Numbered from the stretch's first letter, positions 14,306 through 43,015 are shown. The stretch is DNA of 64,000 nucleotides from an uncultured bacterium (GCA_965369655.1 CBDUQR010000004.1:7951-71950); one strand, 5' to 3'. Translations and numbers: made by a program. The notes: a model not told the origin generated them from the sequence alone.

Positions 14306-14306
14306 A

Positions 14307-15230: not shown

Positions 15231-15295
15231 GCCAGATACTGTCAAGGCGATTTCAGAGAGGATATTATTCCCTTGGGGACAAATGTCCTCGCAAG

Positions 15296-15420
15296 TCCTT
15301 AGCTTCGAAGGGCTTGTCCCAATGCATGTCATTCCCGCGAAGGCGGGAATCTATTGAATGCGTGATTGTTAAATAGGCTCCCGTGGTATCCTGAACAAAG
15401 CGAAGGGCCTCCGCGGGAGC
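15296..15420. repeat. REP-like composite element containing a perfect palindrome (gtcattcccgcgaaggcgggaatc) and cgaaggg modules
   Basis: Motifs shared with the intergenic elements at 22659-22875, 35160-35262 and 43895-43965. Confidence 0.5.
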
Positions 15421-19600: not shown

Positions 19601-20338
19601 GACGAACATCGTGCAGAGCAATGCTGGCACGGATTCATCGGCTGGGGAACACCGCCTTTCGAGTTACTGAAACACCTTAAGCCGCTGTATGAGCAAGCCA
19701 CCGAGAAGTTTCCTCCTGAGGCTTCCAGACTACGTGAGCATCTAATGCAACACTTGGCCTTCATGGCGCTTTCTCTTGAGAATCCGCTTCAGGACAAATG
19801 GTTGCTTCGAGTGAGAAGCCATATGATTCAGGAAGGCGATCTGCTAAAGTGGACTCACAGATTCAGATTCGTATTGATCGACATCCCTGACAACCAGAAG
19901 AAAGCAATATGGGATAGGTGGCTCTGTCAGTATTGGAAGGATCGTACAGAAGGTATATTCGGACGATTCGTTGAAGAGGAAGCCGCAGGAATGCTCAGTT
20001 GGGCACTCGAGCTTGGTCCTGTAATTGGAGAAGTTGTCAATGTTATTTGTAATTCTGATCCTGTAGATGTAGGTAGTACTTCTATTTACATCGAATTGGT
20101 CGAGAGTAGACTTGCAGAGAAGTACCCGGATCCCACAGCCGATCTTCTTCATCATCTTGCCAAGGGGCACAAGCATCCTCTTCCTGCGCAGGAATCCTAC
20201 ATGTGCCACGAGATGTCGGAACTTGTGAAAGAGCTTCATAAGCACGGCGCGTCAATTGATAAGCTCAAAGCAATTTGCGAAGAACTCGCAAAACTTGGAT
20301 GCACAGAAGCCCCTGATCCACATGATTCCCTAAAGTAG
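16658..20338 (+). CDS. SIR2-domain protein, 1226 aa: candidate defense-associated sirtuin (DSR-like NADase with large helical C-terminal region)
   Basis: N-terminus LVVFVGAGVSMPPP, TTNFDSHL, GIVYLHGRAD (SIR2-like Rossmann, Asn and His context). ~900-aa Trp-rich helical remainder, AT-richer than flanks. Hairpin terminator at 20343-20370. Confidence 0.7.
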   Translation: MSETSDFLPPKIPYELKKAQQDGKLVVFVGAGVSMPPPSSLPDFNDLAKKLKDKLGPSFKKRARSESIDQFIGRMVDENHDVRKWVRDIFLSEKSKPNKQHANLIKLFTQPKDVKIVTTNFDSHLSTAARAKFEDSNDINEYLAPALPLGREFSGIVYLHGRADRGANELVLTDRDFGKAYLADGWARRFMLALFRHYHVLFVGYSHEDSVLRYLARGLFDKTQRFAFATEAKEDHWKRLGIKIIKYEQIKRKRKFKLVWEAISSWSNQTQWGLLDHERRITNIVSIVETTDPILSPHSNLTKEDARYLIDAIQQEHLLRLFCDKAKHTYWLEWLEQKEKNKEAEYDTNEQAWKERLEFSKLFSPTAEIGERERVLAWWFAKSFVGCDDQQGLIYLTQRGQTVNPALWDEIARVLAHGKKLPKPETYAKWLSVLMNTVPQHKHALDRILTSRNLNQNYWRGVLNLFQFLTTPRLELEDDYMGELIKGEKKVNANISMLGDKYCLDEAWKRILKPLLPTLSSELAVTFTGHFWRAHSLLVAAGKAGPMWNPVSFSRSAIEPHEQDSQMFGFELIIDYARDVIEFIIENDTRQADALIQIWISSKVPILARLAVHAMRKSIHVSFDDKLRWVLEWELIYKHLTKHEVFMLLEHAFPKAGQDMQLEVIERAKIGPHRDEGEDTEHAKLYEYEIYCLLYWLKKHAPKLHSAQQAFDEVQSRNKEFSPPDHPEFYKWSSGAILIEGFSPIDADELLLKPAAEQVEYLMNGGSESRHIFEREGLMGQVGIAARKNPSWGLDLAEVLRDRTEWKEDIWSSILNAWHKPPFNKEDWPRALGILGDVNILSNNRYTIGYILWHASEMKNIWTEATLHEAEAITERFWDIIGNDAPERTPADDWLFEAINHPAGQLTLFWLHLIERRAELAGHDPDTIPDKYKERFEAIISGTSYASQLGRVTLASQIRYAFSLDRQWTVDNLLPLLDWNKDEHRAEQCWHGFIGWGTPPFELLKHLKPLYEQATEKFPPEASRLREHLMQHLAFMALSLENPLQDKWLLRVRSHMIQEGDLLKWTHRFRFVLIDIPDNQKKAIWDRWLCQYWKDRTEGIFGRFVEEEAAGMLSWALELGPVIGEVVNVICNSDPVDVGSTSIYIELVESRLAEKYPDPTADLLHHLAKGHKHPLPAQESYMCHEMSELVKELHKHGASIDKLKAICEELAKLGCTEAPDPHDSLK

Positions 20339-20342: not shown

Positions 20343-20370
20343 TCAGATTGACTCCCACACTCAATCTGTT
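20343..20370 (+). terminator. hairpin followed by a T-rich tract after the SIR2-domain gene
   Basis: cagattga-ctcccacac-tcaatctg followed by tttaatt. Confidence 0.4.
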
Positions 20371-20398
20371 TAATTGCTCTCTTCACAGGAGGGACTTC

Positions 20399-22657
20399 AT
20401 GGAAGAGCCGAAAGTCGATCTGCAGCTTGCTCTCGATCATGGGCTGTCGGAAGAGGAATACAATCGGATTCTTGATACACTCGGGCGCACGCCGACCTAC
20501 ACTGAGCTTGGGATATTCTCGGTCATGTGGTCGGAGCATTGTTCCTACAAGAATTCTATCGCCCTGCTGAAAACACTTCCGCGCGAGGGATCGACTCTCC
20601 TTACAATGGCGGGCGAGGAAAATGCCGGTGCGGTCGATATCGGCAACGGTTTCGCGATCGTGTTCAAAATCGAATCGCACAACCATCCGACCGCAGTCGA
20701 ACCATATCAGGCAGCAGCAACAGGCGTCGGCGGAATTCTCCGCGACATATTCACTATGGGCGCGCGACCGATTGCCTGTCTCGACTCACTCAGATTCGGC
20801 AATCTCGAAGACCCGCGCTCGCGGTATCTTTTCAATGGCGCAGTCAAAGGCATCGGCGATTACGGCAATTCGTTCGGCGTACCGACTGTCGGCGGCGAGG
20901 TCTATTTCGAGCAATGTTATCAAAGCAACCCGCTCGTCAATCCAATGGCTGTCGGCATCGTGAAGACCGACGGCATCATCAGCGCGACAGCCAAAGGTGC
21001 GGGCAACCCGGTCTATATCGTCGGATCATCGACCGGCCGCGACGGCATCCATGGCGCAACATTCGCATCCGAGGAACTCTCCGAGGAATCTCAATCCAAA
21101 CGCCCATCGGTACAGATCGGCGATCCGTTTACCGAGAAACTCCTGCTCGAAGCCACACTCGAAATCATCAAAGATGATCTGATCGTCGGCATACAGGATA
21201 TGGGCGCGGCGGGAATCACCTGCTGTTCGACCGAGATGGCCGCTCGCGGCAAATCCGGCATGGAGATCGAACTCTCGAAAGTGCCCGTGCGCGAGGAGAA
21301 AATGACGCCGTACGAAATCATGCTCTCCGAATCGCAGGAAAGGATGATGGTGGTCGTCAAGAAGGGCTGCGAATCCAAAGTCGACGAGATATTCAGGAAG
21401 TGGGGGCTTCACGCTGTCGAGATCGGTCATGTAATCGATGAGGACAGAGTGATCGTGCACAACAATGGCAAAGTCGTGGCCGATGTACCGGCTGATATTC
21501 TCGTCCTCGGCGGAGGCGCACCAGTCTATCACAGGGAGACTCGGAGACCAGCATATATCGACGAGTTACGCGAACTCGATCTGGCTGACATCCCCATCCC
21601 GGTCGATCTGAATGCCGCTCTCCTGAGTGTCATCGGTTCTCAGTGCATGGCCGACACGAGCTGGATATACCGGCAGTATGACCACATGGTGCGAACCAAT
21701 ACGGCTGTCCAGCCCGGGTCCGATGCCGCAGTAATCAGGATCAGAAAGACGAACATGGCGATCGCCCTTACAACCGACTGCAACGGCAGATACTGCTATT
21801 TGAATCCGAGACGGGGTGCGATGATTGCCGTGGCCGAAGCTGCGCGAAACATCACGGCATCAGGCGGCAGACCAGCGGCTATAACGAATTGTCTGAACTT
21901 CGGCAATCCAAACAAGCCGGAGATGTACTGGAGTTTCACCGAAGCCGTAGCAGGCATGGGCGAGGCATGCCGCGTGTTCGATACGCCTGTCACCGGCGGC
22001 AATGTGTCGTTCTACAACGAGGACAAGATGACAAAGCGAGCAGTCTATCCGACACCGGTCATCGGGATGCTTGGAATCATAGATGATGTCTCTCATATCA
22101 CCACGCAGTATTTCAAAGACGAAGGCGATGCAATTCTACTCGTCGGTGAAACGACCGGGGAACTCGGCGGATCGGAGTATCTGAAGGTCGTTCACGATAA
22201 AGTCCGGGGTGACTGTCCTGCTATCGATCTGTCGCTCGAAAAAAAGACACAGGACGCGGTCCGAGGACTCGTAACATCAGGGCTTATCAAATCATGCCAC
22301 GATATCTCCGAAGGCGGGCTGGCAATAGCATTAGCCGAATGTTGCATCACGGACAGGGAGAATCAGATTGGATGTGAGGTCTCAATCGAGACAGAACTGC
22401 GACCTGATGTTATGCTGTTCAGCGAGTCCCAATCCCGATTTGTGATCGGCGTTGCGGAGGATGATGTTCAGGAAGTTATATCTCAACTCGGTCGCAGCGA
22501 AATCCCAGTCCGAAAAATAGGACGGGTCGGCGGAGTGAGGTTGGTAATCGATTCACTCATCGACTGCGCACTCGAACAGCTCGGCGAAGCATACTTCAGC
22601 ACACTCTATCGCTATATGGACTCACAATCTTGCAGGTCAAGCGGCCTGCCCGCTTGA
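20399..22657 (+). CDS. purL: phosphoribosylformylglycinamidine synthase subunit PurL (FGAM synthase II)
   Basis: Start chosen at MEEPKVDLQLALDHGLSEEEY (GGAGGG sits 5 nt upstream of the ATG at 20399); classic PurL motifs (ESHNHPTAVEPYQAAATGVGGILRD, tandem AIRS domains). Confidence 0.92.
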   Translation: MEEPKVDLQLALDHGLSEEEYNRILDTLGRTPTYTELGIFSVMWSEHCSYKNSIALLKTLPREGSTLLTMAGEENAGAVDIGNGFAIVFKIESHNHPTAVEPYQAAATGVGGILRDIFTMGARPIACLDSLRFGNLEDPRSRYLFNGAVKGIGDYGNSFGVPTVGGEVYFEQCYQSNPLVNPMAVGIVKTDGIISATAKGAGNPVYIVGSSTGRDGIHGATFASEELSEESQSKRPSVQIGDPFTEKLLLEATLEIIKDDLIVGIQDMGAAGITCCSTEMAARGKSGMEIELSKVPVREEKMTPYEIMLSESQERMMVVVKKGCESKVDEIFRKWGLHAVEIGHVIDEDRVIVHNNGKVVADVPADILVLGGGAPVYHRETRRPAYIDELRELDLADIPIPVDLNAALLSVIGSQCMADTSWIYRQYDHMVRTNTAVQPGSDAAVIRIRKTNMAIALTTDCNGRYCYLNPRRGAMIAVAEAARNITASGGRPAAITNCLNFGNPNKPEMYWSFTEAVAGMGEACRVFDTPVTGGNVSFYNEDKMTKRAVYPTPVIGMLGIIDDVSHITTQYFKDEGDAILLVGETTGELGGSEYLKVVHDKVRGDCPAIDLSLEKKTQDAVRGLVTSGLIKSCHDISEGGLAIALAECCITDRENQIGCEVSIETELRPDVMLFSESQSRFVIGVAEDDVQEVISQLGRSEIPVRKIGRVGGVRLVIDSLIDCALEQLGEAYFSTLYRYMDSQSCRSSGLPA

Positions 22658-23105: not shown

Positions 23106-23251
23106 ACTAATCGGACGCTGAGGAGTCTGTCCAATGCCTAAGGAATGAATTCTAAACTCGGCGACCAACTATGTCGGCACATTGAGATAGAATACACTCA
23201 AACAGACAGTATACACGAACGCCGCCCGGATATGATTCAGGCGGCGTTTTG
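23106..23251 (+). repeat. 146-bp direct repeat, left copy; right copy at 24645-24790, ~93% identical. Each contains a rho-independent terminator (cgccgcccggatatgattcaggcggcgtttt)
   Basis: The two copies bracket the methyltransferase gene; the last 8 codons of the MTase (NRTLRSLSNA) lie inside the repeat. Confidence 0.9.
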
Positions 23252-23396: not shown

Positions 23397-24680
23397 TTGC
23401 ACTTGATGCGGACGAATCACAGAATAGTATTCGGTGACGCACGAAGAATGTCCCTCCTGGAATCTCGGAGTGTCCACTTAGTTGTTACCTCTCCGCCTTA
23501 CTGGCAGCTAAAGGACTATGGCACAAGTGAGCAAATTGGATTCGATAACTCCTACGAGGATTATGTTAACAATCTTAACTTAGTGTGGAGAGAATGCCAC
23601 CGGGTTTTGCATGACGGTTGCAAACTCTGCGTCAATATCGGAGATCAGTTTGCCCGCTCAGTCTACTATGGAAGGTACAAGATCATTCCTATCAGAACGG
23701 AGATAATCAGGTTTTGCGAGACAATCGGTTTCGATTTCATGGGGTCGATTATCTGGCAGAAAGTGACTACCTGCAACACAACAGGCGGCGCGACCATCAT
23801 GGGATCATTTCCCTATCCCAGAAACGGTATTGTCAAGATAGACTATGAGTTCATTCTTCTGTTCAAGAAACAGGGCACCCCCCCTCGTGTCACACCGGAA
23901 GTGAAGGAGAAATCGAGATTGACGAAAGAGGAGTGGAACACTTTCTTCAACGGCCACTGGAATTTCCCCGGCGAAAAACAGTCAAACCATTTGGCAATGT
24001 TCCCGGAAGAACTGCCGAGGCGTCTCATCAAGATGTTCAGCTTTGTAGGAGAACGCGTGCTTGACCCGTTTCTCGGGAGCGGAACGACCACACTTGCCGC
24101 CATGAATCTGGAGCGAGATTCGGTGGGTTATGAGATGTCTACCGATTTCAAGAATATAATCGCTACAAAATTGCAGCAGGGGAGTGATCTGTTCAAGAAA
24201 GTCGATGTCGACTATCTTGAGGATACCTCTCGGCCTGAGGAAAACGATTGGGAATCATTGCCGTATCTTTTCCGTGATCCCCTGAAGTTAGACAAGAAAG
24301 TTGATCCCAGAAAACTGTTGTTCGGTTCCAGGATAAACAGTGAATCCAAAAGTGAAAGACAGTATTATTCTGTTAAGGAAATCCTATCGCCGGATGAACT
24401 GATGTTGGACAGTGGGCTCACTATCAAGCTGCTTGGAATACAACCAGTAAATGGGCTTGAATCCGAAGCAATAAAGTACCTGGAGGATGCTGTCAAGGGG
24501 AAAAAGGTCTCTCTGAAGTTCGATCGAGTCAGGTACGATGATTCCAAACGACTTCTTGTCTATCTTTATCTCAAGAACAGGACATTCATTAATGCTCACC
24601 TGGTCAAACGAGGCTTTGCCGAAGTGGACAGCACGCTGGACATTACTAATCGGACACTGAGGAGTCTGTCCAATGCCTAA
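23397..24680 (+). CDS. DNA methyltransferase, beta class (N4-cytosine or N6-adenine), with C-terminal SNase/thermonuclease-like OB-fold domain
   Basis: Motif IV TSPPY precedes motif I DPFLGSGTT (beta-class order); C-terminal ~130 aa (IKLLGIQPVNGLESEAIKYLEDAVKGKKVSLKFDRVRYDDSKRLLVYLY...AHLVKRGFA) resembles the SNase fold but the Ca/catalytic residues are not obvious. Confidence 0.8.
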   Translation: MHLMRTNHRIVFGDARRMSLLESRSVHLVVTSPPYWQLKDYGTSEQIGFDNSYEDYVNNLNLVWRECHRVLHDGCKLCVNIGDQFARSVYYGRYKIIPIRTEIIRFCETIGFDFMGSIIWQKVTTCNTTGGATIMGSFPYPRNGIVKIDYEFILLFKKQGTPPRVTPEVKEKSRLTKEEWNTFFNGHWNFPGEKQSNHLAMFPEELPRRLIKMFSFVGERVLDPFLGSGTTTLAAMNLERDSVGYEMSTDFKNIIATKLQQGSDLFKKVDVDYLEDTSRPEENDWESLPYLFRDPLKLDKKVDPRKLLFGSRINSESKSERQYYSVKEILSPDELMLDSGLTIKLLGIQPVNGLESEAIKYLEDAVKGKKVSLKFDRVRYDDSKRLLVYLYLKNRTFINAHLVKRGFAEVDSTLDITNRTLRSLSNA

Positions 24681-24790
24681 GGAATGGATTCTAAACTCGG
24701 CGACCAACTATGTCGGCACATTGAGATAGACAATACTCTGAGAGTCAGCATACACGAACGCCGCCCGGATATGATTCAGGAGGCGTTTTG
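24645..24790 (+). repeat. 146-bp direct repeat, right copy (includes the terminator hairpin at 24758-24793)
   Basis: See the left copy at 23106-23251. Confidence 0.9.
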
Positions 24791-24820: not shown

Positions 24821-26620
24821 CTACACGGAATCCGGATAGACTGATCGCCTAAGGATATTTTGACACTCATCCAAGGCATCTCCTGATTTGTCATAGAGTT
24901 TGTCAAGTAGGAGTCCCCACCCGCCAATCTGTGAATCTTTATCAGTCCCAAGTCTTTCGAGCAACTTATCGATGGAAATATCCCTGTGATCATTTGCTTT
25001 TCTCAGATCATGCAGAATATACAGGGCGTTTAGAGGGTTGGGAAGTTGTTCATCGTTCTTAAGTTGAGATATTCTTTCACTTACTGATTCTTCGATATCT
25101 TTAGTGTCAGTGAAAGCGCTTAGGCCTCGTTCGTCTGCAACAAGGCATATCTGGACTAAATAGTTCAACAGTTTGAGAGATTTCTTCCCTTTGATTCGAT
25201 TTCCATCAACATTCAAGGCCAAAAGCAGTTTGCGGAGTGTTTTCTCCTTTAGACCTTCAACTAACACCTTATTGAGGATATTGCATCTCGCAAGGAATCC
25301 TGATTCACTCAATTCCAATGGTATGTGACTGGCTACTTTGCCAGCATACTTTTGAGTCCACCATCCTTCATAATCTAATCTCTTATGGTCAATACTGACG
25401 AAATCCTCAGTGGATGACGTTTCCTCCATAACTCCCTTGGAGATTTCAGTTAGATACTGTCCCAATTTTACTAACCCAATGTACAGACGTTCCGCGCGGA
25501 TTGCGATGTTCGGTTCTTTGCTAAGTACTGAAATGTCGCCTTTTGGTGGATCGACAGCGAACTCATTCCAGTGACGAACCACATCAGAAGGCAGACATTC
25601 GTAAAGCTTTCGCAATTCAGCTTGAATGAGATTGCGCCCTATCCGGTGGCAACGGTCAAAACCCCATTGTCCTTTGTAATACACTGCGCCGATGTCCGGA
25701 AGAATCTTATATAGGTCGGGCTCGGCTTCATAGTCTTCTAGCACTTCATCGCTCACATAGACTTGAGGCATTAGCATTTGCCCAGCTCTGTCCTTTGACA
25801 CTGGCCCACTAATACCCGGCCAATGCAGTGAGCCATAGTCGTCAGTAGCAAACGACACTGGTTTACTGCCAGGCTCAACTAGTAGCCTGACACCATTGAT
25901 CTCGATATGGACTAAGCGGGGGTTGTTGTCTATTCGATGCAGATAAATGGTTCTGCCGGGAAAGACAAGTTTTCCACTTGGATTGATGTCCAATGCTCGT
26001 TTGATATCTTCAGTCATTTCATATTCTCTACTATCCAAGTAGACTTGCACAAGTGATCGATGACGAATCGTGGCGTACTCCTGCAGATAGTCGCGGTGTA
26101 TTTCAATCCACGCTGGGGATTGCAGTCCATACTTATATACTGACACAGATTTGCAGGTTATTACTTTGAACATTGATCTTGAGGCATCGTACCAGTGTAT
26201 TTCATCAGCCTTGCCATCCCTTCGAATTGTCCTTGGTACAAGGCCAAAGGCCGAAAGAAATCTGGGGTCAGGTATCATTACAGATTCGTTTGAACCTGCA
26301 TTCCACGCTGCAACAATTGATTCAAGCCCTTCTGATACTATGTCAGCAGCCCATATATAGAAGGAAGGCGGTATTTCTGTTGAGTCTGCAGACGGTACTC
26401 TGCTTCGTACTTCGTGACCGATACCGCCATCGAACTTTAAAAGTTCTGCGGTTAGGTCTGGGGAGACCAGAGCTGTGAATGTCTCACGCAGGCTGTACTC
26501 TTCAACAGGTTTTCGTATTTCAGCTACTGTCACTTGCTCATTCTCAAGTGGCCTTTCATTGCGAAGATGCTTTAGTGGTTCTGGCCACCAGTTTTCATCT
26601 AACTCATTGTGTTTCTGCAT
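24821..26620 (-). CDS. hypothetical protein, 599 aa, AT-rich, convergent with the methyltransferase; no Walker A and no recognisable nuclease motif
   Basis: Long uninterrupted ORF, weak SD (gagga) upstream of ATG 26620; composition differs from neighbours. Confidence 0.6.
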   Translation of the reverse strand: MQKHNELDENWWPEPLKHLRNERPLENEQVTVAEIRKPVEEYSLRETFTALVSPDLTAELLKFDGGIGHEVRSRVPSADSTEIPPSFYIWAADIVSEGLESIVAAWNAGSNESVMIPDPRFLSAFGLVPRTIRRDGKADEIHWYDASRSMFKVITCKSVSVYKYGLQSPAWIEIHRDYLQEYATIRHRSLVQVYLDSREYEMTEDIKRALDINPSGKLVFPGRTIYLHRIDNNPRLVHIEINGVRLLVEPGSKPVSFATDDYGSLHWPGISGPVSKDRAGQMLMPQVYVSDEVLEDYEAEPDLYKILPDIGAVYYKGQWGFDRCHRIGRNLIQAELRKLYECLPSDVVRHWNEFAVDPPKGDISVLSKEPNIAIRAERLYIGLVKLGQYLTEISKGVMEETSSTEDFVSIDHKRLDYEGWWTQKYAGKVASHIPLELSESGFLARCNILNKVLVEGLKEKTLRKLLLALNVDGNRIKGKKSLKLLNYLVQICLVADERGLSAFTDTKDIEESVSERISQLKNDEQLPNPLNALYILHDLRKANDHRDISIDKLLERLGTDKDSQIGGWGLLLDKLYDKSGDALDECQNILRRSVYPDSV

Positions 26621-26941: not shown

Positions 26942-27838
26942 GTGATCATGTCTTCATCGAGAAACAACTATCCGATTCGCGCCTGCACCCTGCACCTGAT
27001 CCTTGCTGCAGGATTTGTGCTGACTCTGTCTGCAATGTCATCAGTGGCAGCCGATCCGATTCTAAATCTGTATGTTGAGGATACTCCGCTAACACCAAAA
27101 GATTCTTTTGTCACATTCGAGGTGATGATGAATGCGACCGAAGACTCCGTGGGGAGCTTCGAGATATGGTTACAGATGTCTCATCCGTTCATACTTCGGT
27201 TTGACATGGATGATCCTGTTGATACCACTGGCTCTATCTTCGACTGGGGGCTGAGTTGGACCGATTACGGTACTGACGGGAATCTAATCAAGATTCTCGG
27301 ATGGGACGGGGTGGATGGCACGCCGATAGCCCCGAGTGATATTCCGCAGTTGCTGTTTACCCTCAAGGCTGAAGTTATCGACACGATGGCTGACACGCTC
27401 TGTGGATTCACCGGAGAAGTAATCATCAATGTATGGACTTATTTCAACAAGACTACTTTCCCGTACCGGATTGGCTGGGATTTCTGGGAGGAATACGACA
27501 CCACATTCGAGAACTGTGTCGAATGGATTGGCGATTCGTGCATCGCATGGGCTGACACGATCGTGGATACAACAATGTATAATGAACCGAATATGGAGTT
27601 GCTCAACTACCAGGATGGCAGCTACACATTCATCTGTTTCATATGCGGCGACTGCGATAACTCCGGATTAGTCGATATCGATGATGCCGTCTATTTGATA
27701 ACATACATATTCGCTTCCGGTCCTCCTCCGGATCCGCTCGAGAAAGGCGATGTCGACTGGTCGGGTGCAGTTGATATTGATGATGTTGTCTATCTGATAA
27801 CATACATATTTGCCGGCGGACCACCGCCATGTGATTAG
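26942..27838 (+). CDS. secreted protein with C-terminal double dockerin-like repeat
   Basis: Signal peptide (LHLILAAGFVLTLSAMSSVAA); C-terminus GDCDNSGLVDIDDAVYLITYIFASGPPPDP...GDVDWSGAVDIDDVVYLITYIFAGGPPPCD. Confidence 0.75.
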   Translation: MIMSSSRNNYPIRACTLHLILAAGFVLTLSAMSSVAADPILNLYVEDTPLTPKDSFVTFEVMMNATEDSVGSFEIWLQMSHPFILRFDMDDPVDTTGSIFDWGLSWTDYGTDGNLIKILGWDGVDGTPIAPSDIPQLLFTLKAEVIDTMADTLCGFTGEVIINVWTYFNKTTFPYRIGWDFWEEYDTTFENCVEWIGDSCIAWADTIVDTTMYNEPNMELLNYQDGSYTFICFICGDCDNSGLVDIDDAVYLITYIFASGPPPDPLEKGDVDWSGAVDIDDVVYLITYIFAGGPPPCD

Positions 27839-28209
27839 TGAGCGACCGCTCAGTATGTAGCGTGCTTCAGGTCGGGAAGATAGAATATGGATCGAGATTG
27901 GTTTTCAGATATCTTTCGACGGGCGAATGGCTTTTGGGTGGTTCCCCCCATTTCGGGACGATTGACACTATTGAGTCGAGCAGCGCGCCGTCGAAATCTA
28001 TCATTTGCGATTCACTGACCAATCGCCAATGTCTCTTGAATCAATATGAGTCATTGTTCCGAGAGGACAGATTCTGAACATATTTTCCTGCGCAAGTGTC
28101 ACAGCTTTCACGACGTCAGATTCGCAGTCTGGAAAGATGATCGGCGAGCTGTCGTTTGTGTCAATCTTGTCGCTCGGAGATTCCTGCGTCAGAAGAGACC
28201 TGATATCGT

Positions 28210-29352
28210 TCATTTGGCATTCAGGGAGATATCGTAGATGCGGTACCTTTTGTAGACCTTGCTGCCAAGCATCTCGGCTGCGCGATTCATCATCTCGTTA
28301 TCTTCGAGAATCCAGGACATCTCACCCCACTTGTATCCCTTTCTGGCGCCCCTTCTGAATATCTCCAGGTAGAAGATATTGTCGATACCACGCTTCTGAT
28401 AAGACTGCTCGATGCCCATCGTAATCACCCGGACCGAGTTGATCTTGTTCCGGACTTTGGTGTGCCACAGCAACTTGAAGAGACCGAACGGGAATAGTCG
28501 ACCGTTGGCGTACGGCAGCACCTGATTCACATCTGGGAGCGCCAGTTGGAAGCCGACTGGCTTGCCCTCGACCTCGGCGATGAAAACAAGATCCGGATCG
28601 ATGATCTGCTTCATATCTTTGGCAATGTGAAAGAACTCATCCTCGGACATCGGGATGAATCCCCAGTTCTTCTCCCATGCATTATTGTATATCCGGTTGA
28701 TCGCTCTCACTTCGTCGTCGAACTTCTTCATGTTCAAAGTGCGCACGACAACATTGGCTTTGCGTCGAATCCTATCGACAATGCGGACCATCCGTTCAGG
28801 CGGCTCGTCATATTCAGTGATCTTGTACGCGAGCAAATCTTTCGCCTTGGTCAGACCGAATCTCTCGAAAAATCCGGGATAGTAATCGGGATTATATATC
28901 ATGTTTATCATGGGCGGCAAATCAAAGGCGTCGATCAGCGCTCCGACCTCATAGTTGGTCGACAGATTCACAGGTCCGCGCATTTTGTCGAGGCTCTGGG
29001 ACTTGAGATGAATCATCGCCACTTTCAGCAGCTTGCGAGCAACATTGTAGTCGTTCACAGATTCGAAGAACCCGAAGAACCCGATATTTTCGTCGTGGAA
29101 ACTGTTGTGGCTGTGATTTACTATCGCCGCAATCCTTCCGACCATCTCGTTCTGATAGTGCGCCGTGTAGAGCTTGATCGTGGCAGAGCGGAAAAACGGG
29201 TTCTTCCTGCTGCCAAGCATCGCCTTGACGGATGATATAAGCGGAGGCACCCAGTTCGGATTGCCCCTGTAAATCTTCCAGGGGAGTTTTATGAATGCAG
29301 AAAGCTGCGAGCGGTTCTCGACCTCTCTGATTTCAATATCGTCGTAGTTCAT
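28210..29352 (-). CDS. GNAT-fold acyltransferase, FemAB/BioF2-associated type (candidate N-acyltransferase)
   Basis: 380 aa, immediately downstream of an alpha-oxoamine synthase gene (classic BioF2-like acetyltransferase context); two-lobed GNAT-like composition. Confidence 0.6.
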   Translation of the reverse strand: MNYDDIEIREVENRSQLSAFIKLPWKIYRGNPNWVPPLISSVKAMLGSRKNPFFRSATIKLYTAHYQNEMVGRIAAIVNHSHNSFHDENIGFFGFFESVNDYNVARKLLKVAMIHLKSQSLDKMRGPVNLSTNYEVGALIDAFDLPPMINMIYNPDYYPGFFERFGLTKAKDLLAYKITEYDEPPERMVRIVDRIRRKANVVVRTLNMKKFDDEVRAINRIYNNAWEKNWGFIPMSEDEFFHIAKDMKQIIDPDLVFIAEVEGKPVGFQLALPDVNQVLPYANGRLFPFGLFKLLWHTKVRNKINSVRVITMGIEQSYQKRGIDNIFYLEIFRRGARKGYKWGEMSWILEDNEMMNRAAEMLGSKVYKRYRIYDISLNAK

Positions 29353-29362
29353 TCGACAGGCA

Positions 29363-30577
29363 TCAGATAACGCCCAACTCGCGTCCTACGCTTCCGAAGA
29401 TATCGAGGACCTTGTCGAGTTCCTCGTCAGTGTGCGTAGCTGTGTAGGATGTTCGTATCAGGGCTTGCCCCGGAGGTACCGCAGGCGGGATAATCGGGTT
29501 GGCAAATATGCCTGCTTTCGAGAGGGATTTCCAGAACTTGAAACAGTCCATATCATCGCCGATGTTGATCGGGATAATCGGAGTTTCGGTCAGCCCTATA
29601 TCGAACCCGAGCGCCCTGAACCCCTCGTGCATTTTTCGGGTGTTCTCCCATAGCCGCTCTCTGCGCTCCGGCTCGGTCCTGATTATCCGCAATGCTTCTC
29701 GAACACCCGCGACAGCGGCAGGCGGCATCGAAGCTGAAAATATGAGTTCACGCGCTTTGTGCTTGATGTAGTTTACGATCTCGAACGAGCCTGCGATATA
29801 TCCGCCGAGCGATGCGAACGACTTGGAGAATGTCCCCATGATAATATCGACTCGTTCTTCGATATCGAAATGCTCAGCCGTGCCTCGGCCTCCCAGACCG
29901 AGCACCCCGACGGCGTGCGCATCATCGACCATCACACCCGCGCCATACTCCTCGGCGACCTCGATGAGTTCGGGAAGCTTCGCGATATCACCTTCCATCG
30001 AGAACACGCCATCCACTACGATAAACCTGCCGCCAGAGCATTCCACATTGCGCAGTACACGCGCAAGATCGTCCATGTCGTTATGGGCGAATTTGTACGT
30101 CTTGCCGAATGCAAGGCGAGTACCGTCGACGATCGAAGCGTGATCGGTCCTGTCTATGAAAATCGTGTCACGTTTGTCGACTATGCACGAGATTGCACCG
30201 AGATTCGCCTGGAATCCGGTCGAGAAGACCAGCGCGGCTTCCTTGTTGAGGAAATCAGCCAATTCATCTTCGAGGCTTACGTGTATGTCGAGCGTACCGT
30301 TGAGATACCTCGATCCGGTGCACCCGGAGCCGTACTTCTCGACCGCCTTAATGCAGGCTTCCTTGACCCTCGGGTCAGTCGTCAGACCGAGGTAGTTGTT
30401 CGATCCGATCATGATCTGCTCAGTGCCGTCGATCATGACCGAGTGGGCGGGAGCAGATGATATGGGGCGAAAATAGGGGTAATACCCCATCGCCATAACT
30501 TCTTGTGGCCGAGTGAAATCAGCGCATTTCTGGAACAATGGCTTCGTAATTTTTTCTTGTTTGCTATATGTTTTCAT
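29363..30577 (-). CDS. alpha-oxoamine synthase family PLP enzyme (serine palmitoyltransferase / 8-amino-7-oxononanoate synthase-like)
   Basis: PLP lysine context GTFSKSFASLGGY, DDAHAVGVLG, GxxYPYF N-terminus. Start taken at MKTYSKQEK (30577); the TTG at 30616 would overlap the divergent gene. Confidence 0.8.
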   Translation of the reverse strand: MKTYSKQEKITKPLFQKCADFTRPQEVMAMGYYPYFRPISSAPAHSVMIDGTEQIMIGSNNYLGLTTDPRVKEACIKAVEKYGSGCTGSRYLNGTLDIHVSLEDELADFLNKEAALVFSTGFQANLGAISCIVDKRDTIFIDRTDHASIVDGTRLAFGKTYKFAHNDMDDLARVLRNVECSGGRFIVVDGVFSMEGDIAKLPELIEVAEEYGAGVMVDDAHAVGVLGLGGRGTAEHFDIEERVDIIMGTFSKSFASLGGYIAGSFEIVNYIKHKARELIFSASMPPAAVAGVREALRIIRTEPERRERLWENTRKMHEGFRALGFDIGLTETPIIPINIGDDMDCFKFWKSLSKAGIFANPIIPPAVPPGQALIRTSYTATHTDEELDKVLDIFGSVGRELGVI

Positions 30578-30583
30578 ACTTAT

Positions 30584-31651
30584 ATGGGTCCATGTGAAAA
30601 GCAAACTAACCGTCAATTGGGACCATTGTCAAGAGAAAAGCTTGTGAATACAGGTGGAAATGCAAATCGAAAAAGCGTGCTGATCACCGGAGTGACAGGT
30701 TTCGTTGGAAGTCATCTGGCGGATACATTCGTAAGGTCTGGCTATGCCGTTACAGGCATGCTCAGGGAAACTTCCAGCCGAAAATTTATCGAACATCTCG
30801 ACATCGATCTCAGGTTCGGCGATCTCGGCAAACCGGAGACTCTCGGGTCCGTTGTCGAGGGCCATGACTATATTGTTCATCCTGCCGGGTTGATTATGGC
30901 AAAATCGGCGGATGAGTTCATGCGCGCGAATCGTGACGGCACGAGATTCTTACTGGAGGCAGCAAGAGAGCGATGCCCCGGTCTGAAGAGATTCGTGTAT
31001 ATCTCCTCGCAGGCAGCAGCCGGTCCGTCAGACTCGACATCAGGGAATGACGAGACAGTACCGCCGCATCCGGTGTCGGATTACGGCAGGAGCAAACTGG
31101 CTGGAGAAATTGAATGCCTGAAGCTCAAAGATCAGTTCGCTGTCACTATCGTGCGCCCTCCGGCTGTCTATGGTCCGCGCGATGATGGCGTGCTGGCGTT
31201 TTTCAAGATCGTGAAATCGGGATGGTACTGGAAACTCGGTCGGAAAGAGCGGTATGCGTCTATAGTCTTCGTGAAAGACCTCGCCAAAATGATCCTGGCG
31301 GCTGTCGAATCTGATGTTGCGTCCGGAGAGGTGTTTTTCGCCGCCAATCCGGGGCCACTCTCGATCTGGGACATCCAGAAAATGATCGCCTCTGTGATGA
31401 AGGTCGAGGTGAAGCCGCTCCTGACGCCGATATGGCTGGTGCGAGCTATGGTACCGCTCGATGCGTTCGGTTCGATGCTCACCGGCAAAGCTCGTGGCCT
31501 GACAGCCGATAAAATACGGGAGCTTTTACATCAATACTGGATTTGCGACTCGTCTAAGGCAGAGCGTCTTCTTGGATGGAAAGCGGAAACACCGCTCGAA
31601 GATGGCATTGCAGAAACAATCGAGTGGTACGAACGGAACAGGTGGCTCTGA
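30584..31651 (+). CDS. NAD-dependent epimerase/dehydratase-family SDR (candidate reductase)
   Basis: Rossmann VLITGVTGFVGSHL, catalytic YxxxK (SDYGRSK); start moved to ATG 30584 to avoid a long divergent overlap. Confidence 0.75.
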   Translation: MGPCEKQTNRQLGPLSREKLVNTGGNANRKSVLITGVTGFVGSHLADTFVRSGYAVTGMLRETSSRKFIEHLDIDLRFGDLGKPETLGSVVEGHDYIVHPAGLIMAKSADEFMRANRDGTRFLLEAARERCPGLKRFVYISSQAAAGPSDSTSGNDETVPPHPVSDYGRSKLAGEIECLKLKDQFAVTIVRPPAVYGPRDDGVLAFFKIVKSGWYWKLGRKERYASIVFVKDLAKMILAAVESDVASGEVFFAANPGPLSIWDIQKMIASVMKVEVKPLLTPIWLVRAMVPLDAFGSMLTGKARGLTADKIRELLHQYWICDSSKAERLLGWKAETPLEDGIAETIEWYERNRWL

Positions 31652-32076
31652 TGTTTGGGATGCCGACAGGTATATTCCTCGAGACGGCTGGAGCTGCATC
31701 TGCGGTCCTGATCGTCATCGTCCTGATTCAGCTCTGGCTGGAGAAAATAATCGGATTCTACAGCCTTATCCCCGAGGAATTGCGAGAAGAGAGGGGCAGG
31801 TCGTGGATCGTGATTCTGCTTGCAGCCGAGATCATTGTATTCGCGGTTGGACCGACACTTTTCTACTATTGGATCTATGCCGTCCTGCCATTTTTCAGCT
31901 ACCGCGCCGGTGTCGCTGTAGGCATCTTCCTGTATCTGTTCGGAGTGCTGCCGTTCGCAATCGGCCTGGTTCTGCGAATGAAACTCCCCGGCGGCATGAT
32001 GGTTTTCACGTTCTTCTTCACCATCCTGAAACTCGTTGCATGCTGGGGGATGGTGACATACGTGATGAATATTTAA
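31651..32076 (+). CDS. small integral membrane protein (about 4 TM helices), translationally coupled to the SDR gene (TGATG)
   Basis: Start ATG overlaps the SDR stop; highly hydrophobic (LIVIVLIQLWL, WIYAVLPFFSY, FGVLPFAIGLVL). Confidence 0.5.
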   Translation: MFGMPTGIFLETAGAASAVLIVIVLIQLWLEKIIGFYSLIPEELREERGRSWIVILLAAEIIVFAVGPTLFYYWIYAVLPFFSYRAGVAVGIFLYLFGVLPFAIGLVLRMKLPGGMMVFTFFFTILKLVACWGMVTYVMNI

Positions 32077-32195
32077 TTCTCTTTCTGCGCCAAGAAAACA
32101 CCACCGAGTACCAATAGCCCGCCCACTCCAATGTCGATAGAATCGCATCCGTAAATGCGATGCTCATGTCGTGTACGGTTGTATCGAATTCAGTA

Positions 32196-34832
32196 TCATG
32201 TCCGATGCAAATCCAGCAATGTGCGCATTTCAGGGTGACTTCGAAGCGGCGCCCATCGTGGGTGAAGCCTGATTTCTGCGATGGATAATGGCGACGGCAT
32301 CGCGAGCAATTGTTCGACCAAATCCATTGCCTGCTCGTACTCCCCTATCCACACATATACGAGGCAAAGATCGCGCATCAGATCGCTTCCCTTGTACGCA
32401 TCCGTCGATACTGGGAGTTCACTCGTCGCTTCTCTACCAAGTCGGATGGCGTCGGCTTTTCTACCGAGTCCGGCCAGCGTTCTGGCAAGCGCCATCTTCG
32501 TCTCGGCTTGTTCCTCACCCGTATGCTCGAGTAGAAGCTCGGCTTCGAAGCATGCTCGCGCAGAATCATAGAATATCCGGCTATTTTCACGATCGCCGGA
32601 ATAGAGATAGACCCTTCCAAAGTGAGAGTAGTATGAACCGCTGTCGGCGGCGGTTTTTAGATGATCGATTTGTCTTTCCTCACGGCGAAAAGCTGTTTCC
32701 CAATCTCCCACTGTCACATCAAGCTGCCACAACTCGTATCTTATATCGCTCGGATCAATCTTCCCGTAGCTGTCTTCGATCGTGATACGTGCTCGCACCG
32801 TATCACCCATGGAGAGTCCTTGTATCAACGCCTTTGTGCCCCATCCCCATGCGAAATCCGGGTAAAGCGACAGGATGCGGTCGATCTCGTTGAGCGCTGC
32901 GTCGTATCGGCGCATATATGCGTTTGATATAACCAGGTTTGCCGACTTGGATATCGAACGGGGATCGAGTGTCACGGCCTGTTGCAACAGGTCAAGAGTC
33001 TCATACCACTCGCCCTGTCGTCTCTTCACATAGGCTACTGCGCTCAGGAGCTCGCTGTTGCCCGGTTGGATGGCAAGCGCATGCGAGAACTCCTCAAGCG
33101 CGAGATCATAATCTCGACCAGCATAGTAATAACAATAGCCGAGCGCAAGATGACCGTCCGCAAGAGTCGGATCGAGAATCAGCGCTCTGCCTGCTGCGAC
33201 TCTGGCCTTTCCGATTCGCTCAGGCGTACGGTCTTTACAGGACCAGTAAACGTAGGAATGCACTTGGGAAAGCCCGGCGTAGGCAAGTGCGTAACCCGGA
33301 TCCAGTTCAATCGCTTTCTCAAACATCTCCTCAGCAAATTCAAACTCGTGGCGATCATCATATTCGAGCCCGCGGAGATAGAAATCGTGAGCCTCAATGT
33401 TGTCGGTCGGCCTGGATTCAAGCGCCTGGCGTTCAGGTTCGAGAATCGCGATGTCAAGCGCTTCAGCTATCCTTTCCGCAATGTCCGACTGGACAACGAA
33501 GATTTCAGTCAGTTCTTTTTCGTAGCTTTCTGACCAGATATGTCGATCTTCATCCACCCTTATGAGCTGAGATGTAATCCTGACCCGGTCGACACTCGCA
33601 GTCTTATCCCAAAGGATAGACCCTTCGAGCACGTAATCCACACCAAGCTCTCCCGCTATTTCCGGTAAGGTCTTGTCCGAGTTTGTGTACGCACTGGCGC
33701 TTTTTCCAGAGGTTACTCCGAGGTCGATGAGGGTCGTGAGCTTTGATCTGATCTCCTCCGTCATGCCTGCAGCGAAGTAGTCGTTTTCGGCCGGACCGAG
33801 GTTTTCGAATGGCAGTACCGCTATCATCATCCGGGAAAAAATCGTTTTGTCGGAATCGCTGCCGGAGAATTTGATAACCGCTATGATGGCTGCAATGGCG
33901 AGCAGAGTGACACCGATCAGCAGGTACTTCGGCACCCGAATCGTCCCATTGGACAAGGCTTCAGGCTCCTGTGATCCCTTTAGCCGCTTCAGATCGGCAA
34001 CGACGTCGGATGCAGTCTGATATCGCAGGGAAGAATCCTTGTCGAGCAGTTTTGTGATGATCCTCTGAAGTTTATCTGACGCTCTTCTCGTGTATTTCGC
34101 CAGAGGCTCCGGGTCATCGCTGAGAATCGAGTACATAGTTGCCTGATCGGAATCCCTCATGAATGGCGACTTGCCGGTGGTCATTTCATACATCAATACG
34201 CCCAGCGAGAACAGATCCGACCGCTCGTCAGTCTGTCCCGGCTTGATCTGTTCCGGCGACATATAACCGGTCGTGCCGAACATGGAGCCGGTCTTAGTCA
34301 GTTTCTCCGAACCCTTGACGGCTGCAAGTCCAAAGTCGAGCAGTATCGGACGCCCGTTTGTGTCAACAATGATGTTGGATGGCTTGATATCCCGATGCAG
34401 CACTCCTGCACTATGAGCCTCATGCAGACCCTCACAGATCTGTGTCGAGAGATCGATGACTTCGTTCTGAGTAAGTTCTCCCTGCTCGATGATGTCCGCC
34501 AGTGACTGACCAGTAACATGCCGCATTGCGAAGAAGGGTCGATTTTCATGCTCGCCGACCTCATGGATTGTCACGATATTCGGATGATCCAGTTTGGCCG
34601 CAGCCTGTGCCTCACGCTTGAAGCGAGACCTGTATTCTTCATCCTGGCAGAGGATTGACGAGAGGAACTTCAGGGCAACCTGTCTGTCTAGGCCGATGTC
34701 ATCGGCAAGGAAAACCTCACCCATCCCGCCTGATCCGATTTTCTCTACAATCCTGTAGTGCGATACGACTGTACCGGCTGCAAGGATTCGATGTGATTCC
34801 GTCTGGTCATCCCTACGATGGTCAGAAGCCAT
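32196..34832 (-). CDS. Ser/Thr protein kinase with central TM segment and C-terminal TPR repeat domain
   Basis: GSGGMGEVF, VALK, HRDIKPSNII, DFG; then TM (LLIGVTLLAIAAIIAVI) and multiple TPR-like repeats. Confidence 0.85.
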   Translation of the reverse strand: MASDHRRDDQTESHRILAAGTVVSHYRIVEKIGSGGMGEVFLADDIGLDRQVALKFLSSILCQDEEYRSRFKREAQAAAKLDHPNIVTIHEVGEHENRPFFAMRHVTGQSLADIIEQGELTQNEVIDLSTQICEGLHEAHSAGVLHRDIKPSNIIVDTNGRPILLDFGLAAVKGSEKLTKTGSMFGTTGYMSPEQIKPGQTDERSDLFSLGVLMYEMTTGKSPFMRDSDQATMYSILSDDPEPLAKYTRRASDKLQRIITKLLDKDSSLRYQTASDVVADLKRLKGSQEPEALSNGTIRVPKYLLIGVTLLAIAAIIAVIKFSGSDSDKTIFSRMMIAVLPFENLGPAENDYFAAGMTEEIRSKLTTLIDLGVTSGKSASAYTNSDKTLPEIAGELGVDYVLEGSILWDKTASVDRVRITSQLIRVDEDRHIWSESYEKELTEIFVVQSDIAERIAEALDIAILEPERQALESRPTDNIEAHDFYLRGLEYDDRHEFEFAEEMFEKAIELDPGYALAYAGLSQVHSYVYWSCKDRTPERIGKARVAAGRALILDPTLADGHLALGYCYYYAGRDYDLALEEFSHALAIQPGNSELLSAVAYVKRRQGEWYETLDLLQQAVTLDPRSISKSANLVISNAYMRRYDAALNEIDRILSLYPDFAWGWGTKALIQGLSMGDTVRARITIEDSYGKIDPSDIRYELWQLDVTVGDWETAFRREERQIDHLKTAADSGSYYSHFGRVYLYSGDRENSRIFYDSARACFEAELLLEHTGEEQAETKMALARTLAGLGRKADAIRLGREATSELPVSTDAYKGSDLMRDLCLVYVWIGEYEQAMDLVEQLLAMPSPLSIAEIRLHPRWAPLRSHPEMRTLLDLHRT

Positions 34833-40680: not shown

Positions 40681-41430
40681 TCAGCGGACACATCCCGGCA
40701 ATGGGGCTGGCCCATTTCCAAAGATGAACTCAATCAGATATACGACGTCGTCAATATCTATCCCACAGCTCTGATCTGTATCACCGCTGTTCAAGTCCCA
40801 GGGCGGACATCCACCCGCAAAGATATAATTGATCAGGTAGACTACATCGTCAATGTCAACTGAGGATGATGCGTCCACATCACCAGGTATCACCATGATG
40901 GTGTCAGGAGCAACGAACTGCGTGTCAAGCTCCTGATATGTTGGAGCCCATCCATTATACATGCTAAAGAATTCAAAGCCTGTTGGGTTACCAACTATAG
41001 AGCCACCGAATGTCATTGACAATGAGTCTTTCATTTCGCATTCAAATATAAGTTTTGCGAGGATACCGTCAAAAGGTGTAAGACAGCCAAATAACCCTGC
41101 GCCTATGCCGGCATAACAATGTTGGTCTGACTCGTCAATATCGAAAAACACAGTGAATTCACTGTCAGGACCGCTCGGATAGAATAGGATTGTGTCAAGC
41201 CGGTTCGAACCTGTCCATGTAAACTCAAAATGAACTATTTGTGCCCAATCGTCCGAAAAGACGCGAAGGGGGATCAAACGTTTCAGGTTCTGACTGCAGC
41301 CGTCAGGTTGGTATTCCGGCTCGAGGAAGTAGGCAGAATCCGGCACTCCCCAATCCTGCGCCATGACTGGCATCACTACACAAGTCAATGCCAGTGCGAC
41401 AACTATACACAGAAGTAATAATGTTCTCAT
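40681..41430 (-). CDS. secreted dockerin-tagged protein, paralog A of a 4-gene tandem family
   Basis: Start at MRTLLLLCIVVAL (ATG 41430, GGAGG 8 nt upstream); C-terminus GDVDASSSVDIDDVVYLINYIFAGG...GDTDQSCGIDIDDVVYLIEFIFGNGPAP. Confidence 0.7.
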   Translation of the reverse strand: MRTLLLLCIVVALALTCVVMPVMAQDWGVPDSAYFLEPEYQPDGCSQNLKRLIPLRVFSDDWAQIVHFEFTWTGSNRLDTILFYPSGPDSEFTVFFDIDESDQHCYAGIGAGLFGCLTPFDGILAKLIFECEMKDSLSMTFGGSIVGNPTGFEFFSMYNGWAPTYQELDTQFVAPDTIMVIPGDVDASSSVDIDDVVYLINYIFAGGCPPWDLNSGDTDQSCGIDIDDVVYLIEFIFGNGPAPLPGCVR

Positions 41431-41465
41431 TAAGACACCTCCAACGAACACTGAACTGAGTAAAT

Positions 41466-42203
41466 TCAACGGACACATCCCGGCAACGGTGCTGGTCCGC
41501 CTCCAAAGATGAACTCTATCAGATATACAACGTCGTCAATATCTATCCCGCAGCTCTGATCTGTATCACCGCTGTTCAAGTCCCAGGGTGGGCATCCACC
41601 TGCGAAAATGTACATGATCAAGTAAACAACGTCATCGATATCAACATCATCGAGCCCGTTCGCATTACCGGAAGAAACCATTATAGTATCAGGAGTGATA
41701 AACATCGTATCGAGATGACAGTATCCGGGTTCCCATTCTGTCCAATCCGTCAAAATGAAACCATTCGACACGCGATTCAGCCAAAGAGTGTCACCCAAAC
41801 CAGTTCGAAATACCAATTCTGCTATGATGCCCTGACTCGGAGGAAAGGAAGGGGGGTCAACTCTTGCTATCCCACCATAGAAATATCTGTCATCGTTGTC
41901 GATATTAGCTACCTGTGTGAATGGAGTGTCGGGAAAAGGTGGGTAGAACAACACGGTGTCGAGCAGATCAGATCCCTCCCACGTGAATTCAAGTTGCATC
42001 AACCAAGTATGCTCGTCTGCAAAAAGATGGAGCGGCATAATTCGTTTGATATCCCCGCTGCATCCATCCGGTTCATATCGTGGCTCCAGGAAATAGACCG
42101 AGTCAGGTATGCCAGGATCTATGCCATCCAGTGCATAAACTGGCCTTACTGCACCAGTCAATGCCAATGCCACAACCGCACACAGAAGTAATGACGTTCT
42201 CAT
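41466..42203 (-). CDS. secreted dockerin-tagged protein, paralog B
   Basis: Start at MRTSLLLCAVVAL (ATG 42203, GGAGGTG 5 nt upstream); same architecture, more divergent middle. Confidence 0.7.
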   Translation of the reverse strand: MRTSLLLCAVVALALTGAVRPVYALDGIDPGIPDSVYFLEPRYEPDGCSGDIKRIMPLHLFADEHTWLMQLEFTWEGSDLLDTVLFYPPFPDTPFTQVANIDNDDRYFYGGIARVDPPSFPPSQGIIAELVFRTGLGDTLWLNRVSNGFILTDWTEWEPGYCHLDTMFITPDTIMVSSGNANGLDDVDIDDVVYLIMYIFAGGCPPWDLNSGDTDQSCGIDIDDVVYLIEFIFGGGPAPLPGCVR

Positions 42204-42237
42204 TCGACACCTCCTGCAGATATGAAATGGCTCACAT

Positions 42238-42981: not shown

Positions 42982-43015
42982 TCGACACCTCCCGTGAACA
43001 CGAAACGGATCAAGT

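Follow-up and report, generated by a model that had tools for sequence, protein, structure and literature searches.

The reference pathway for bacterial ceramide synthesis is that of Caulobacter crescentus, reportedly described by Olea-Ozuna in 2021 and by Stankeviciute in 2022. Its enzymes are a serine palmitoyltransferase (Spt or SPT; CC_1162/CCNA_01220), a bacterial ceramide synthase (bCerS; CC_1154/CCNA_01212) and a ceramide reductase (CerR; CC_1164/CCNA_01222) (PMC11087976, PMC11324152), the genes CC_1154 and CC_1164 having been named cerS and cerR, respectively (PMC11324152). In Escherichia coli BL21(DE3), the CC_1154 ortholog yghO (ECD_02850) is found in the cluster yghO-aasR-epi-acpR-spt (PMC9386255). 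According to Ding et al. (ISME J 2024, PMC11334938), clusters of Spt-like, bCerS and CerR genes are predicted in metagenome-assembled genomes of ~40 phyla. Here, a locus with the same three enzyme families as the Caulobacter/E. coli BL21(DE3) system was examined in a 64,000-nucleotide (64-kb) stretch of DNA from an uncultured bacterium (GCA_965369655.1 CBDUQR010000004.1:7951-71950), the whole of which is referred to as the window. Positions 28210 to 32076 of the window encode an alpha-oxoamine synthase (AOS), a GNAT-type protein, an extended short-chain dehydrogenase/reductase (SDR) and a small membrane protein. Based on enzyme homology, the GNAT fold, conservation of the SPT active site and gene order across phyla, this locus is likely to be an Spt-bCerS-CerR ceramide cluster of the Bacteroidota/Myxococcota type, for which activities, substrates, product and cellular location can be predicted from homologs.

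The host is an uncultured Zixibacteria-like bacterium, the best homologs of the window proteins carrying the names Zixibacteria or 'FCB group'. Two divergent transcription units lie between 28210 and 32076, with the following features (lengths in amino acids, aa):

28210-29352, minus strand: bCerS/YghO-family tandem-GNAT N-acyltransferase, candidate bacterial ceramide synthase, 380 aa (YghO homology and AlphaFold (AF2) fold)
29363-30577, minus strand: AOS, serine palmitoyltransferase-like, 404 aa from the ATG at 30577 (Pfam Aminotran_1_2)
30578-30643, no strand: divergent intergenic region with presumed promoters (read from the sequence)
about 30644-31651, plus strand: CerR-like extended SDR, ~335 aa from the GTG at 30644 (Pfam PF01370)
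31651-32076, plus strand: orphan four-helix membrane protein, 141 aa, TGATG-coupled to the SDR

On the minus strand the AOS gene lies upstream, and 10 nucleotides (nt) separate its stop codon from the ATG of the GNAT gene. With the SDR start taken as the GTG at 30644, the AOS and SDR start codons are ~66 nt apart; at its other end, the SDR stop codon (TGA, 31649-31651) shares a base with the ATG of the membrane-protein gene (31651-31653). A sequence-only reading of the window had placed an AOS and a GNAT gene on one strand and, diverging from them, an SDR gene coupled by TGATG to that of a protein with four transmembrane (TM) helices. All four genes were recovered in this arrangement, the TGATG overlap was seen by reading the sequence directly, and an AlphaFold model of the membrane protein has four long helices. 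When 27700-32400 was scanned for sigma-70 consensus promoters and for terminators, counts were at or below those of shuffled controls, with none in the divergent intergenic region.

For assignment of the AOS, a combination of profile searches, PDB comparison, phylogeny and active-site alignment was used. The Pfam match, PF00155 (Aminotran_1_2, E 1e-56), gives the generic aminotransferase fold only. With the NCBIfam hidden Markov models (HMMs), the best of 19 families was NF047600 (SerpalmtaseCFB, the Bacteroidota-type SPT) at 550 bits, 127 bits ahead; lower scores were obtained with the BioF/Kbl subfamily (423 bits), beta-proteobacterial Spt (411), Kbl (399) and BioF (395) models. Among PDB sequences, the best match was the SPT of Sphingobacterium multivorum (3A2B/8GUH) at 436 bits, with 51-52% identity and no gaps over 381 aa, and the Sphingomonas SPTs scored 296-305 bits. 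Other PDB scores were 285 bits for Kbl, 254-256 for 28eh and 7u7h, 227 for BioF and 150 for CqsA. Entry 28eh is named cysteate-C-fatty acyltransferase; 7u7h, labelled only '7-keto-8-aminopelargonate synthetase-like enzyme', we take to be an enzyme of the cysteate-acyltransferase type. An alternative AOS start, at the internal Met encoded at 30496, would give a protein of 377 aa and is the one used in the NCBI-derived calls of the AOS cluster.

A neighbor-joining tree with 100 bootstraps was built from the window AOS, the GNAT-linked AOS sequences of other genomes, E. coli BioF, Kbl, the BL21 Spt and three PDB sequences. The window AOS, all GNAT-linked AOS sequences and the S. multivorum SPT formed a single clade in 100 of 100 bootstraps, and all SPTs were split from BioF/Kbl in 90 of 100. 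E. coli BioF, with 34.6% identity, was the reference most distant from the AOS and fell outside the SPT clade. The BL21 Spt is 40% identical to the window AOS, which the tree places in the other SPT subgroup. Kbl- and CqsA-type identities of the AOS were also considered and were rejected on HMM scores, the tree and gene context.

Of the 14 active-site residues listed for S. multivorum SPT (PMC10196870), 12 are identical in the AOS. Its residues Lys252, His146, Asp218 and His221 align with Lys244 (the catalytic lysine), His138 (which stacks on pyridoxal phosphate, PLP), Asp210 and His213 of the S. multivorum enzyme. All of Asn52, Gly80, Ser81, Ser243 and His138 (S. multivorum numbering), which reach the serine hydroxyl and carboxylate by water-mediated contacts, are kept. 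The two changes, F83Y and M271I, are both conservative, and Met271 touches the substrate through its main chain. We infer that the AOS is an Spt of the Bacteroidota/delta-proteobacterial subgroup, and activity with serine and a long-chain acyl donor is predicted from this conservation. The characterised enzyme of the subgroup, S. multivorum SPT, uses palmitoyl-CoA (coenzyme A) directly (PMC10196870).

The same chemistries could in principle serve a non-serine N-acyl amino-alcohol lipid, such as a capnine-type sulfonolipid made from cysteate, or a 1-deoxy- or glycine-derived 'ceramide'. Homology of the AOS to the cysteate-C-fatty acyltransferase 28eh (and, at a similar score, to 7u7h) is in keeping with such a product, as are the low-efficiency use of Ala and Gly by SPTs (PMC10196870) and the abundance of 1-deoxyceramides in anoxic waters, which are attributed to uncultured bacteria (PMC11334938). 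We nevertheless consider it improbable: the SPT match is far above the cysteate-enzyme match (436 versus 254 bits), every residue with a water-mediated contact to the serine hydroxyl or carboxylate is kept, and no cysteate synthase-like gene was found in Pfam scans of the 64-kb window. BioF, Kbl and cysteate-C-fatty acyltransferase have the same PLP fold and catalytic lysine as the AOS and 35-43% identity to it, but they score lower and fall outside the SPT clade, and their usual partners (bioABD, tdh and cysteate synthase) are absent from the window.

The GNAT protein gave no match in Pfam, NCBIfam or PDB sequence searches, with no Pfam GNAT model reaching E 0.01; for this reason, its fold and homology were taken from AF2, Foldseek and YghO. 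The AF2 model has a predicted local distance difference test score (pLDDT) of 88.6. A Foldseek search of the PDB with this model returned tandem-GNAT structures, namely 7q3a (E 3.5e-15), 2wpw and MshD (1ozp), and fold relatives include MAB_4324, the clavulanate tandem GNAT and MshD. Alignment with E. coli BL21 YghO, which is also 380 aa long, gave 36% identity over 374 aa (E 2e-82). The family is highly conserved, the homolog at rank 120 being still 55% identical, and has at least 7989 members, a lower bound given that 7989 of the 8000 scored candidates were significant. Members of the GNAT cluster are annotated 'hypothetical protein' by JGI, as are those of the membrane-protein cluster. On the basis of its homology and fold, the GNAT protein is a candidate bCerS, for which N-acylation of 3-ketosphinganine or sphinganine is predicted.

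The SDR open reading frame (ORF) is open from 30503 and, if read from there, would run into the AOS start. Its homologs have called lengths of 327-342 aa, and the GTG at 30644, giving 335 aa, is the most likely start. The protein matches Pfam Epimerase (PF01370, E 1.5e-35), and the TGxxGxxG (VLITGVTGFVG), Ser (YISSQ) and YxxxK (YGRSK) motifs are kept when the protein is aligned with the linked SDRs and with E. coli epi. By BLASTP, it is 26% identical over 319 aa (E 1e-32) to BL21 epi, the ortholog of CC_1164 cerR. A profile was then built from 20 SDRs adjoining AOS or GNAT genes in other genomes, with the window SDR left out. This profile gave 422 bits to the window SDR, 201 to E. coli epi, 97-117 to four weaker-matching SDRs from the same set of loci and 59 to RfaD, which argues that the window SDR belongs to the family of the E. 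coli ceramide reductase orthologous to CC_1164 rather than to the generic epimerases. HpnA was the top NCBIfam match and was rejected as an identity, scoring 124 bits against a cut-off of 368. The SDR has no apparent N-terminal signal peptide, starting, like the E. coli ortholog, 8-10 residues before the Rossmann motif; Caulobacter CerR is reported to be a periplasmic, peripheral-membrane protein (PMC11087976).

Gene order was compared by a scan with the GNAT alignment, one genome per species, from which the 80 closest loci were taken; Caulobacter and Bacteroides are not among them (L numbers below denote individual loci outside the window). These loci come from at least 10 phylum-level groups, with labels such as Zixibacteria, Ignavibacteria, Poribacteria, Gemmatimonadota, Planctomycetota, Nitrospirota, Sumerlaeota, Calditrichota and Spirochaetia among others, and at least 1.3 kb of upstream sequence is present in 73 of them. 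In 56 of the 80, the gene immediately upstream of GNAT, in the same orientation, encodes an AOS; a further 3 have one within 3 kb. SDR genes whose products score above 140 bits flank 23 of the 80 loci, with opposite-strand placement in 16 and same-strand placement in 7, and AOS, GNAT and SDR genes are all together in 19. Linked SDR genes are divergent or on the same strand in many phyla, and follow the GNAT gene directly in Myxococcus and Bacteroidota loci. Both the pairing and the triad are well beyond coincidence: the AOS-GNAT-SDR arrangement recurs far more than chance would allow, and Spt and YghO genes form a pair that is very widespread and, as a unit, tightly conserved.

One cultured species, Myxococcus dinghuensis (L074), has AOS, GNAT and SDR genes in a row, with 55, 48 and 34% identity, respectively, to those of the window by tblastn. 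Myxococcus is a genus listed among Spt-carrying sphingolipid producers, and M. xanthus is named as one of the delta-proteobacteria with SPTs that cluster with those of the Bacteroidetes type (PMC9386255). GNAT genes without an adjacent AOS gene were seen in Bacteroidota, Cloacimonadota, Chlorobiota and others, in line with the report of dispersed genes in these groups (PMC11334938).

Taken as a pathway, the three enzymes would act as follows. The PLP-dependent Spt would condense L-serine with a long-chain acyl thioester, probably an acyl-CoA, to produce 3-ketosphinganine. The co-transcribed tandem-GNAT protein of the bCerS/YghO family would N-acylate 3-ketosphinganine to 3-keto-dihydroceramide, and the divergently encoded SDR of the CerR family would use NAD(P)H to reduce the 3-keto group, yielding dihydroceramide. 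Which of N-acylation and keto-reduction comes first is still debated for Caulobacter (PMC11087976, PMC11324152).

Like the BL21 cluster, the window has its GNAT gene in one neighborhood with Spt and reductase genes. Gene order differs, the window having an AOS-GNAT operon and a divergent SDR gene in place of yghO-aasR-epi-acpR-spt, and a gene for a small four-helix membrane protein is present where proteobacterial clusters carry LptF/G paralogs. The proteobacterial system also requires AcpR and AasR, encoded beside spt. These two components of the Rhodobacteria-type five-gene system (Spt, AcpR, AasR, CerR and CerS), an acyl carrier protein (ACP) plus an acyl-ACP synthetase, were looked for. 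No acyl-ACP synthetase/AMP-ligase domain was detected by Pfam among ORFs of at least 130 aa in the 64-kb window, nor was an ACP, although the latter is a weaker statement because an ACP of ~80 aa would fall below that cut-off; neither was present among the gene families that recur near AOS-GNAT pairs across the 80 related loci. Both belong to the alpha-, beta- and gamma-proteobacterial system (PMC9386255), and they are not expected with an SPT of the present type.

The three genes are dispersed in cultured Bacteroidota (PMC11334938), whereas those of the window are clustered. For uncultured anaerobes, the same source draws the same inference from an Spt-clade AOS with nearby bCerS and CerR genes, and the window locus would be counted among such clusters. 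Zixibacteria are not named in its main text or text-form supplementary files, the phylum figure lying outside that check, and an SDR-coupled membrane protein is not described in those parts of the paper.

It could also be supposed that only the AOS-GNAT pair is a lipid module, the SDR and membrane protein being independent of it (e.g. a sugar-nucleotide reductase or a reductase of another lipid). This would account for the HpnA-like top NCBIfam match of the SDR, for an SDR in the flank of just 23 of 80 loci and for locus L092, where the SDR-membrane protein pair stands with a class-V aminotransferase (Aminotran_5) gene and without a visible AOS-GNAT pair. The HpnA score is, however, far under its cut-off, and the linked-SDR profile favors the E. 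coli cerR ortholog (201 bits) over RfaD (59) and other SDRs (97-117). Linked SDR genes moreover recur in both orientations across many phyla, with Myxococcus and Bacteroidota loci having theirs immediately behind the GNAT gene, and known producers normally have their cerR genes dispersed (PMC11334938). Independence of the two halves is accordingly unlikely, slightly more so than a non-serine product.

That the AOS is BioF, the 8-amino-7-oxononanoate synthase of biotin synthesis, with unrelated neighbors, can hardly be credited: a member of the AOS 90%-identity cluster is labelled '8-amino-7-oxononanoate synthase' by JGI and, given the relatedness of all AOS enzymes, 395 bits are still reached with the BioF HMM, but this score is under the model's own cut-off of 426 and 155 bits below that of the SPT model, no reference is more distant than E. 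coli BioF, which is outside the SPT clade, no bioA, bioB, bioC or bioD was found in Pfam scans of substantial ORFs across the 64-kb window, and the conserved partner of the AOS across phyla is a YghO-type GNAT rather than any bio gene. The sequence-only reading had already preferred a ceramide set of Spt, GNAT-fold ceramide synthase and epimerase-family reductase to a BioF annotation, and each of these enzymes is now tied by sequence to the reference bacterial pathway. Its preference is upheld by the 100/100 bootstraps of the SPT clade and by HMM scores of 550 versus 395 bits. In the phylogeny it had suggested against Spt, BioF, Kbl and CqsA, the AOS groups with S. multivorum SPT and apart from BioF/Kbl (the CqsA match, from the PDB, is just 150 bits), and the outcome it had named as contrary, grouping with BioF next to bioA, bioD and bioB, did not arise, with no bioA/B/D in the 64 kb. 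The ACP or acyl-ACP synthetase that it had advised looking for nearby was not found among the ORFs of at least 130 aa.

Several points nevertheless count against assignment of the locus to ceramide synthesis. Despite sharing a clade with S. multivorum SPT, the AOS at 550 bits is below the curated cut-off of 640 for the SPT equivalog NF047600, and neither its amino-acid specificity (Ser, Ala or Gly) nor its acyl donor can be read from sequence. The identity of the SDR to E. coli epi is just 26%, and both the GNAT protein and the SDR were matched to E. coli orthologs only, not to the biochemically tested Caulobacter proteins. At L092, an SDR-membrane protein-aminotransferase unit has no adjacent AOS-GNAT pair, the upstream neighbor being a phosphoribosyltransferase gene (1 kb of upstream sequence is covered). 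Finally, the literature searched holds no lipid data for Zixibacteria and no paper linking them to sphingolipid synthesis. With these points taken into account, a ceramide cluster is still the reading that we hold to be likely. The pathway itself is already known, and the window locus is an ordinary further example that leaves it unchanged.

The SDR-coupled orphan membrane protein is the sole element of the locus not described before. It has no Pfam match, and Foldseek against the PDB returned nothing at E < 1 for its AlphaFold model of four long helices (pLDDT 81). Likeness to four-helix flippases of the SMR or ArnE/F type was considered and found no support. Among 12 close homologs, 41 positions are invariant; a glutamate of helix 2 is one of them, and others fall in three loops, the charged LIPExLREERG, PFFSYRAG and RMKLPGG. 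Across 1.84 billion representative proteins, a profile search by HMMER yielded 36 clusters only, of 83-256 aa and mostly 130-145 aa. Ten loci beyond the window carry the gene (L004, L005, L008, L060, L085, L089, L090, L091, L092 and L094); L086 and L093 are second contigs with the same genes as L085 and L092 and were not counted. In all 10, the homolog overlaps or closely trails the upstream gene, and in 9 of the 10 that gene matches the window SDR with 37-60% identity, the sequence at L094 covering only a 40-aa fragment.

From this gene order, a role as the reductase's membrane partner is most likely, the protein either anchoring it or presenting or moving the lipid. An Aminotran_5 gene often follows that of the membrane protein (L005, L060, L089 and L092), and genes of this type, ~385 aa, are found directly downstream of the SDR gene, with or without the membrane protein, at L005, L006, L027, L057, L060, L089, L092 and L093; the window has none. 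At L089, the Aminotran_5 gene is followed by a 249-aa FAD_binding_4 gene. These arrangements point to a longer module, as yet uncharacterised, in some lineages. A more far-reaching possibility, which we offer tentatively and would not expect to hold, is that the membrane protein is an undescribed dedicated partner of CerR, anchoring it or presenting or flipping the keto-lipid, and that some Zixibacteria extend the SDR pair with the class-V aminotransferase and the short FAD_binding_4 protein, possibly for a modified sphingoid lipid new to bacteria.

Other genes were found beside the AOS-GNAT pair or the SDR gene in related loci. At five loci of Latescibacterota, Sumerlaeota, Bacteroidota and Nitrospirota, a PAP2_3 membrane protein with 4-7 predicted TM helices adjoins the GNAT or SDR genes (L045:3988-4914, with homologs in L046, L052, L053 and L081); we presume this to be an Aur1/Ipt1-like protein and a candidate sphingolipid head-group transferase. 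A gene of ~180 aa, without a Pfam match but with an N-terminus like that of a lipoprotein, starts 2-140 nt after the GNAT gene in 20 loci overall, including L001, L002, L013, L016-L018, L020, L023, L024, L029, L035, L042, L043 and L051 (Zixibacteria and Ignavibacteria). It is absent from the window and may be another accessory of the cluster. Genes for MlaD-like proteins and ABC ATPases are directly beside the AOS-GNAT pair at L039, L059 and L082 (Poribacteria) and at L085 (4766-5668); they recall the LptF/G paralogs of proteobacterial sphingolipid clusters and may, by analogy, serve lipid export.

In the close relatives L004 and L085, an intact FAD_binding_4 gene of 245-248 aa follows the GNAT gene, with MlaD next in L085. 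At the same position, the window has the following feature:

27873-28213, minus strand: decayed FAD_binding_4 remnant, located by tblastn with the L085 protein

The first ORF of this remnant, 70 aa, is ATGA-coupled to the GNAT stop codon. Of the 248-aa L085 protein, residues 7-63 aligned to 28207-28037 and residues 195-246 to 28025-27873 in another frame, the middle 130 aa being missing.

Elsewhere in the window, the Impact_N and DprA genes (13421-15332, minus strand) are ~13-15 kb from the GNAT gene, compared with 2-7 kb in other Zixibacteria loci. The region seems to have gained insertions, since SIR2-like, purL-like, methylase-cassette and dockerin genes sit between DprA/Impact_N and GNAT. 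A candidate anti-phage defence gene encodes a 1226-aa protein with SIR2_2 and DUF4020 domains (16658-20338, plus strand); its neighbors are an Obg-like GTPase gene and a large ORF, purL-like by eye (20348-22657). A 146-nt direct repeat, 92% identical, at 23106-23251 and 24645-24790 flanks a gene fusing N6_N4_Mtase and SNase domains (23397-24680), which looks like an inserted cassette and is adjoined by a 599-aa ORF with no Pfam match (24821-26620, minus strand). Three secreted-looking proteins encoded on the plus strand have type I dockerin ends (26942-27838, 47886-50291 and 50555-53728), one with papain-like C1 and lectin-like domains and one with a gingipain-like C25 peptidase; an 83-nt internal repeat at 27647/27746 reflects the dockerin duplication. 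These proteins hint at a possible surface display of the dockerin/cohesin type in this Zixibacteria-like genome. Four consecutive, partly overlapping ORFs with no Pfam match (265, 270, 276 and 241 aa) occupy 40681-43741 on the minus strand.

The present assignment corrects the default 'BioF' and 'hypothetical protein' annotations to a sphingolipid pathway. It predicts ceramide-based envelope lipids in Zixibacteria-like bacteria, widespread inhabitants of sediments and groundwater, and is of use in outer-membrane biology as well as in the reading of sphingolipid biomarkers from the environment. The coupled orphan membrane protein gives a small, concrete lead on the membrane organisation of the reductase step and, if it is indeed a partner of CerR, would bear on the location and sequence of the reduction of bacterial ceramide and of its passage across the inner membrane.

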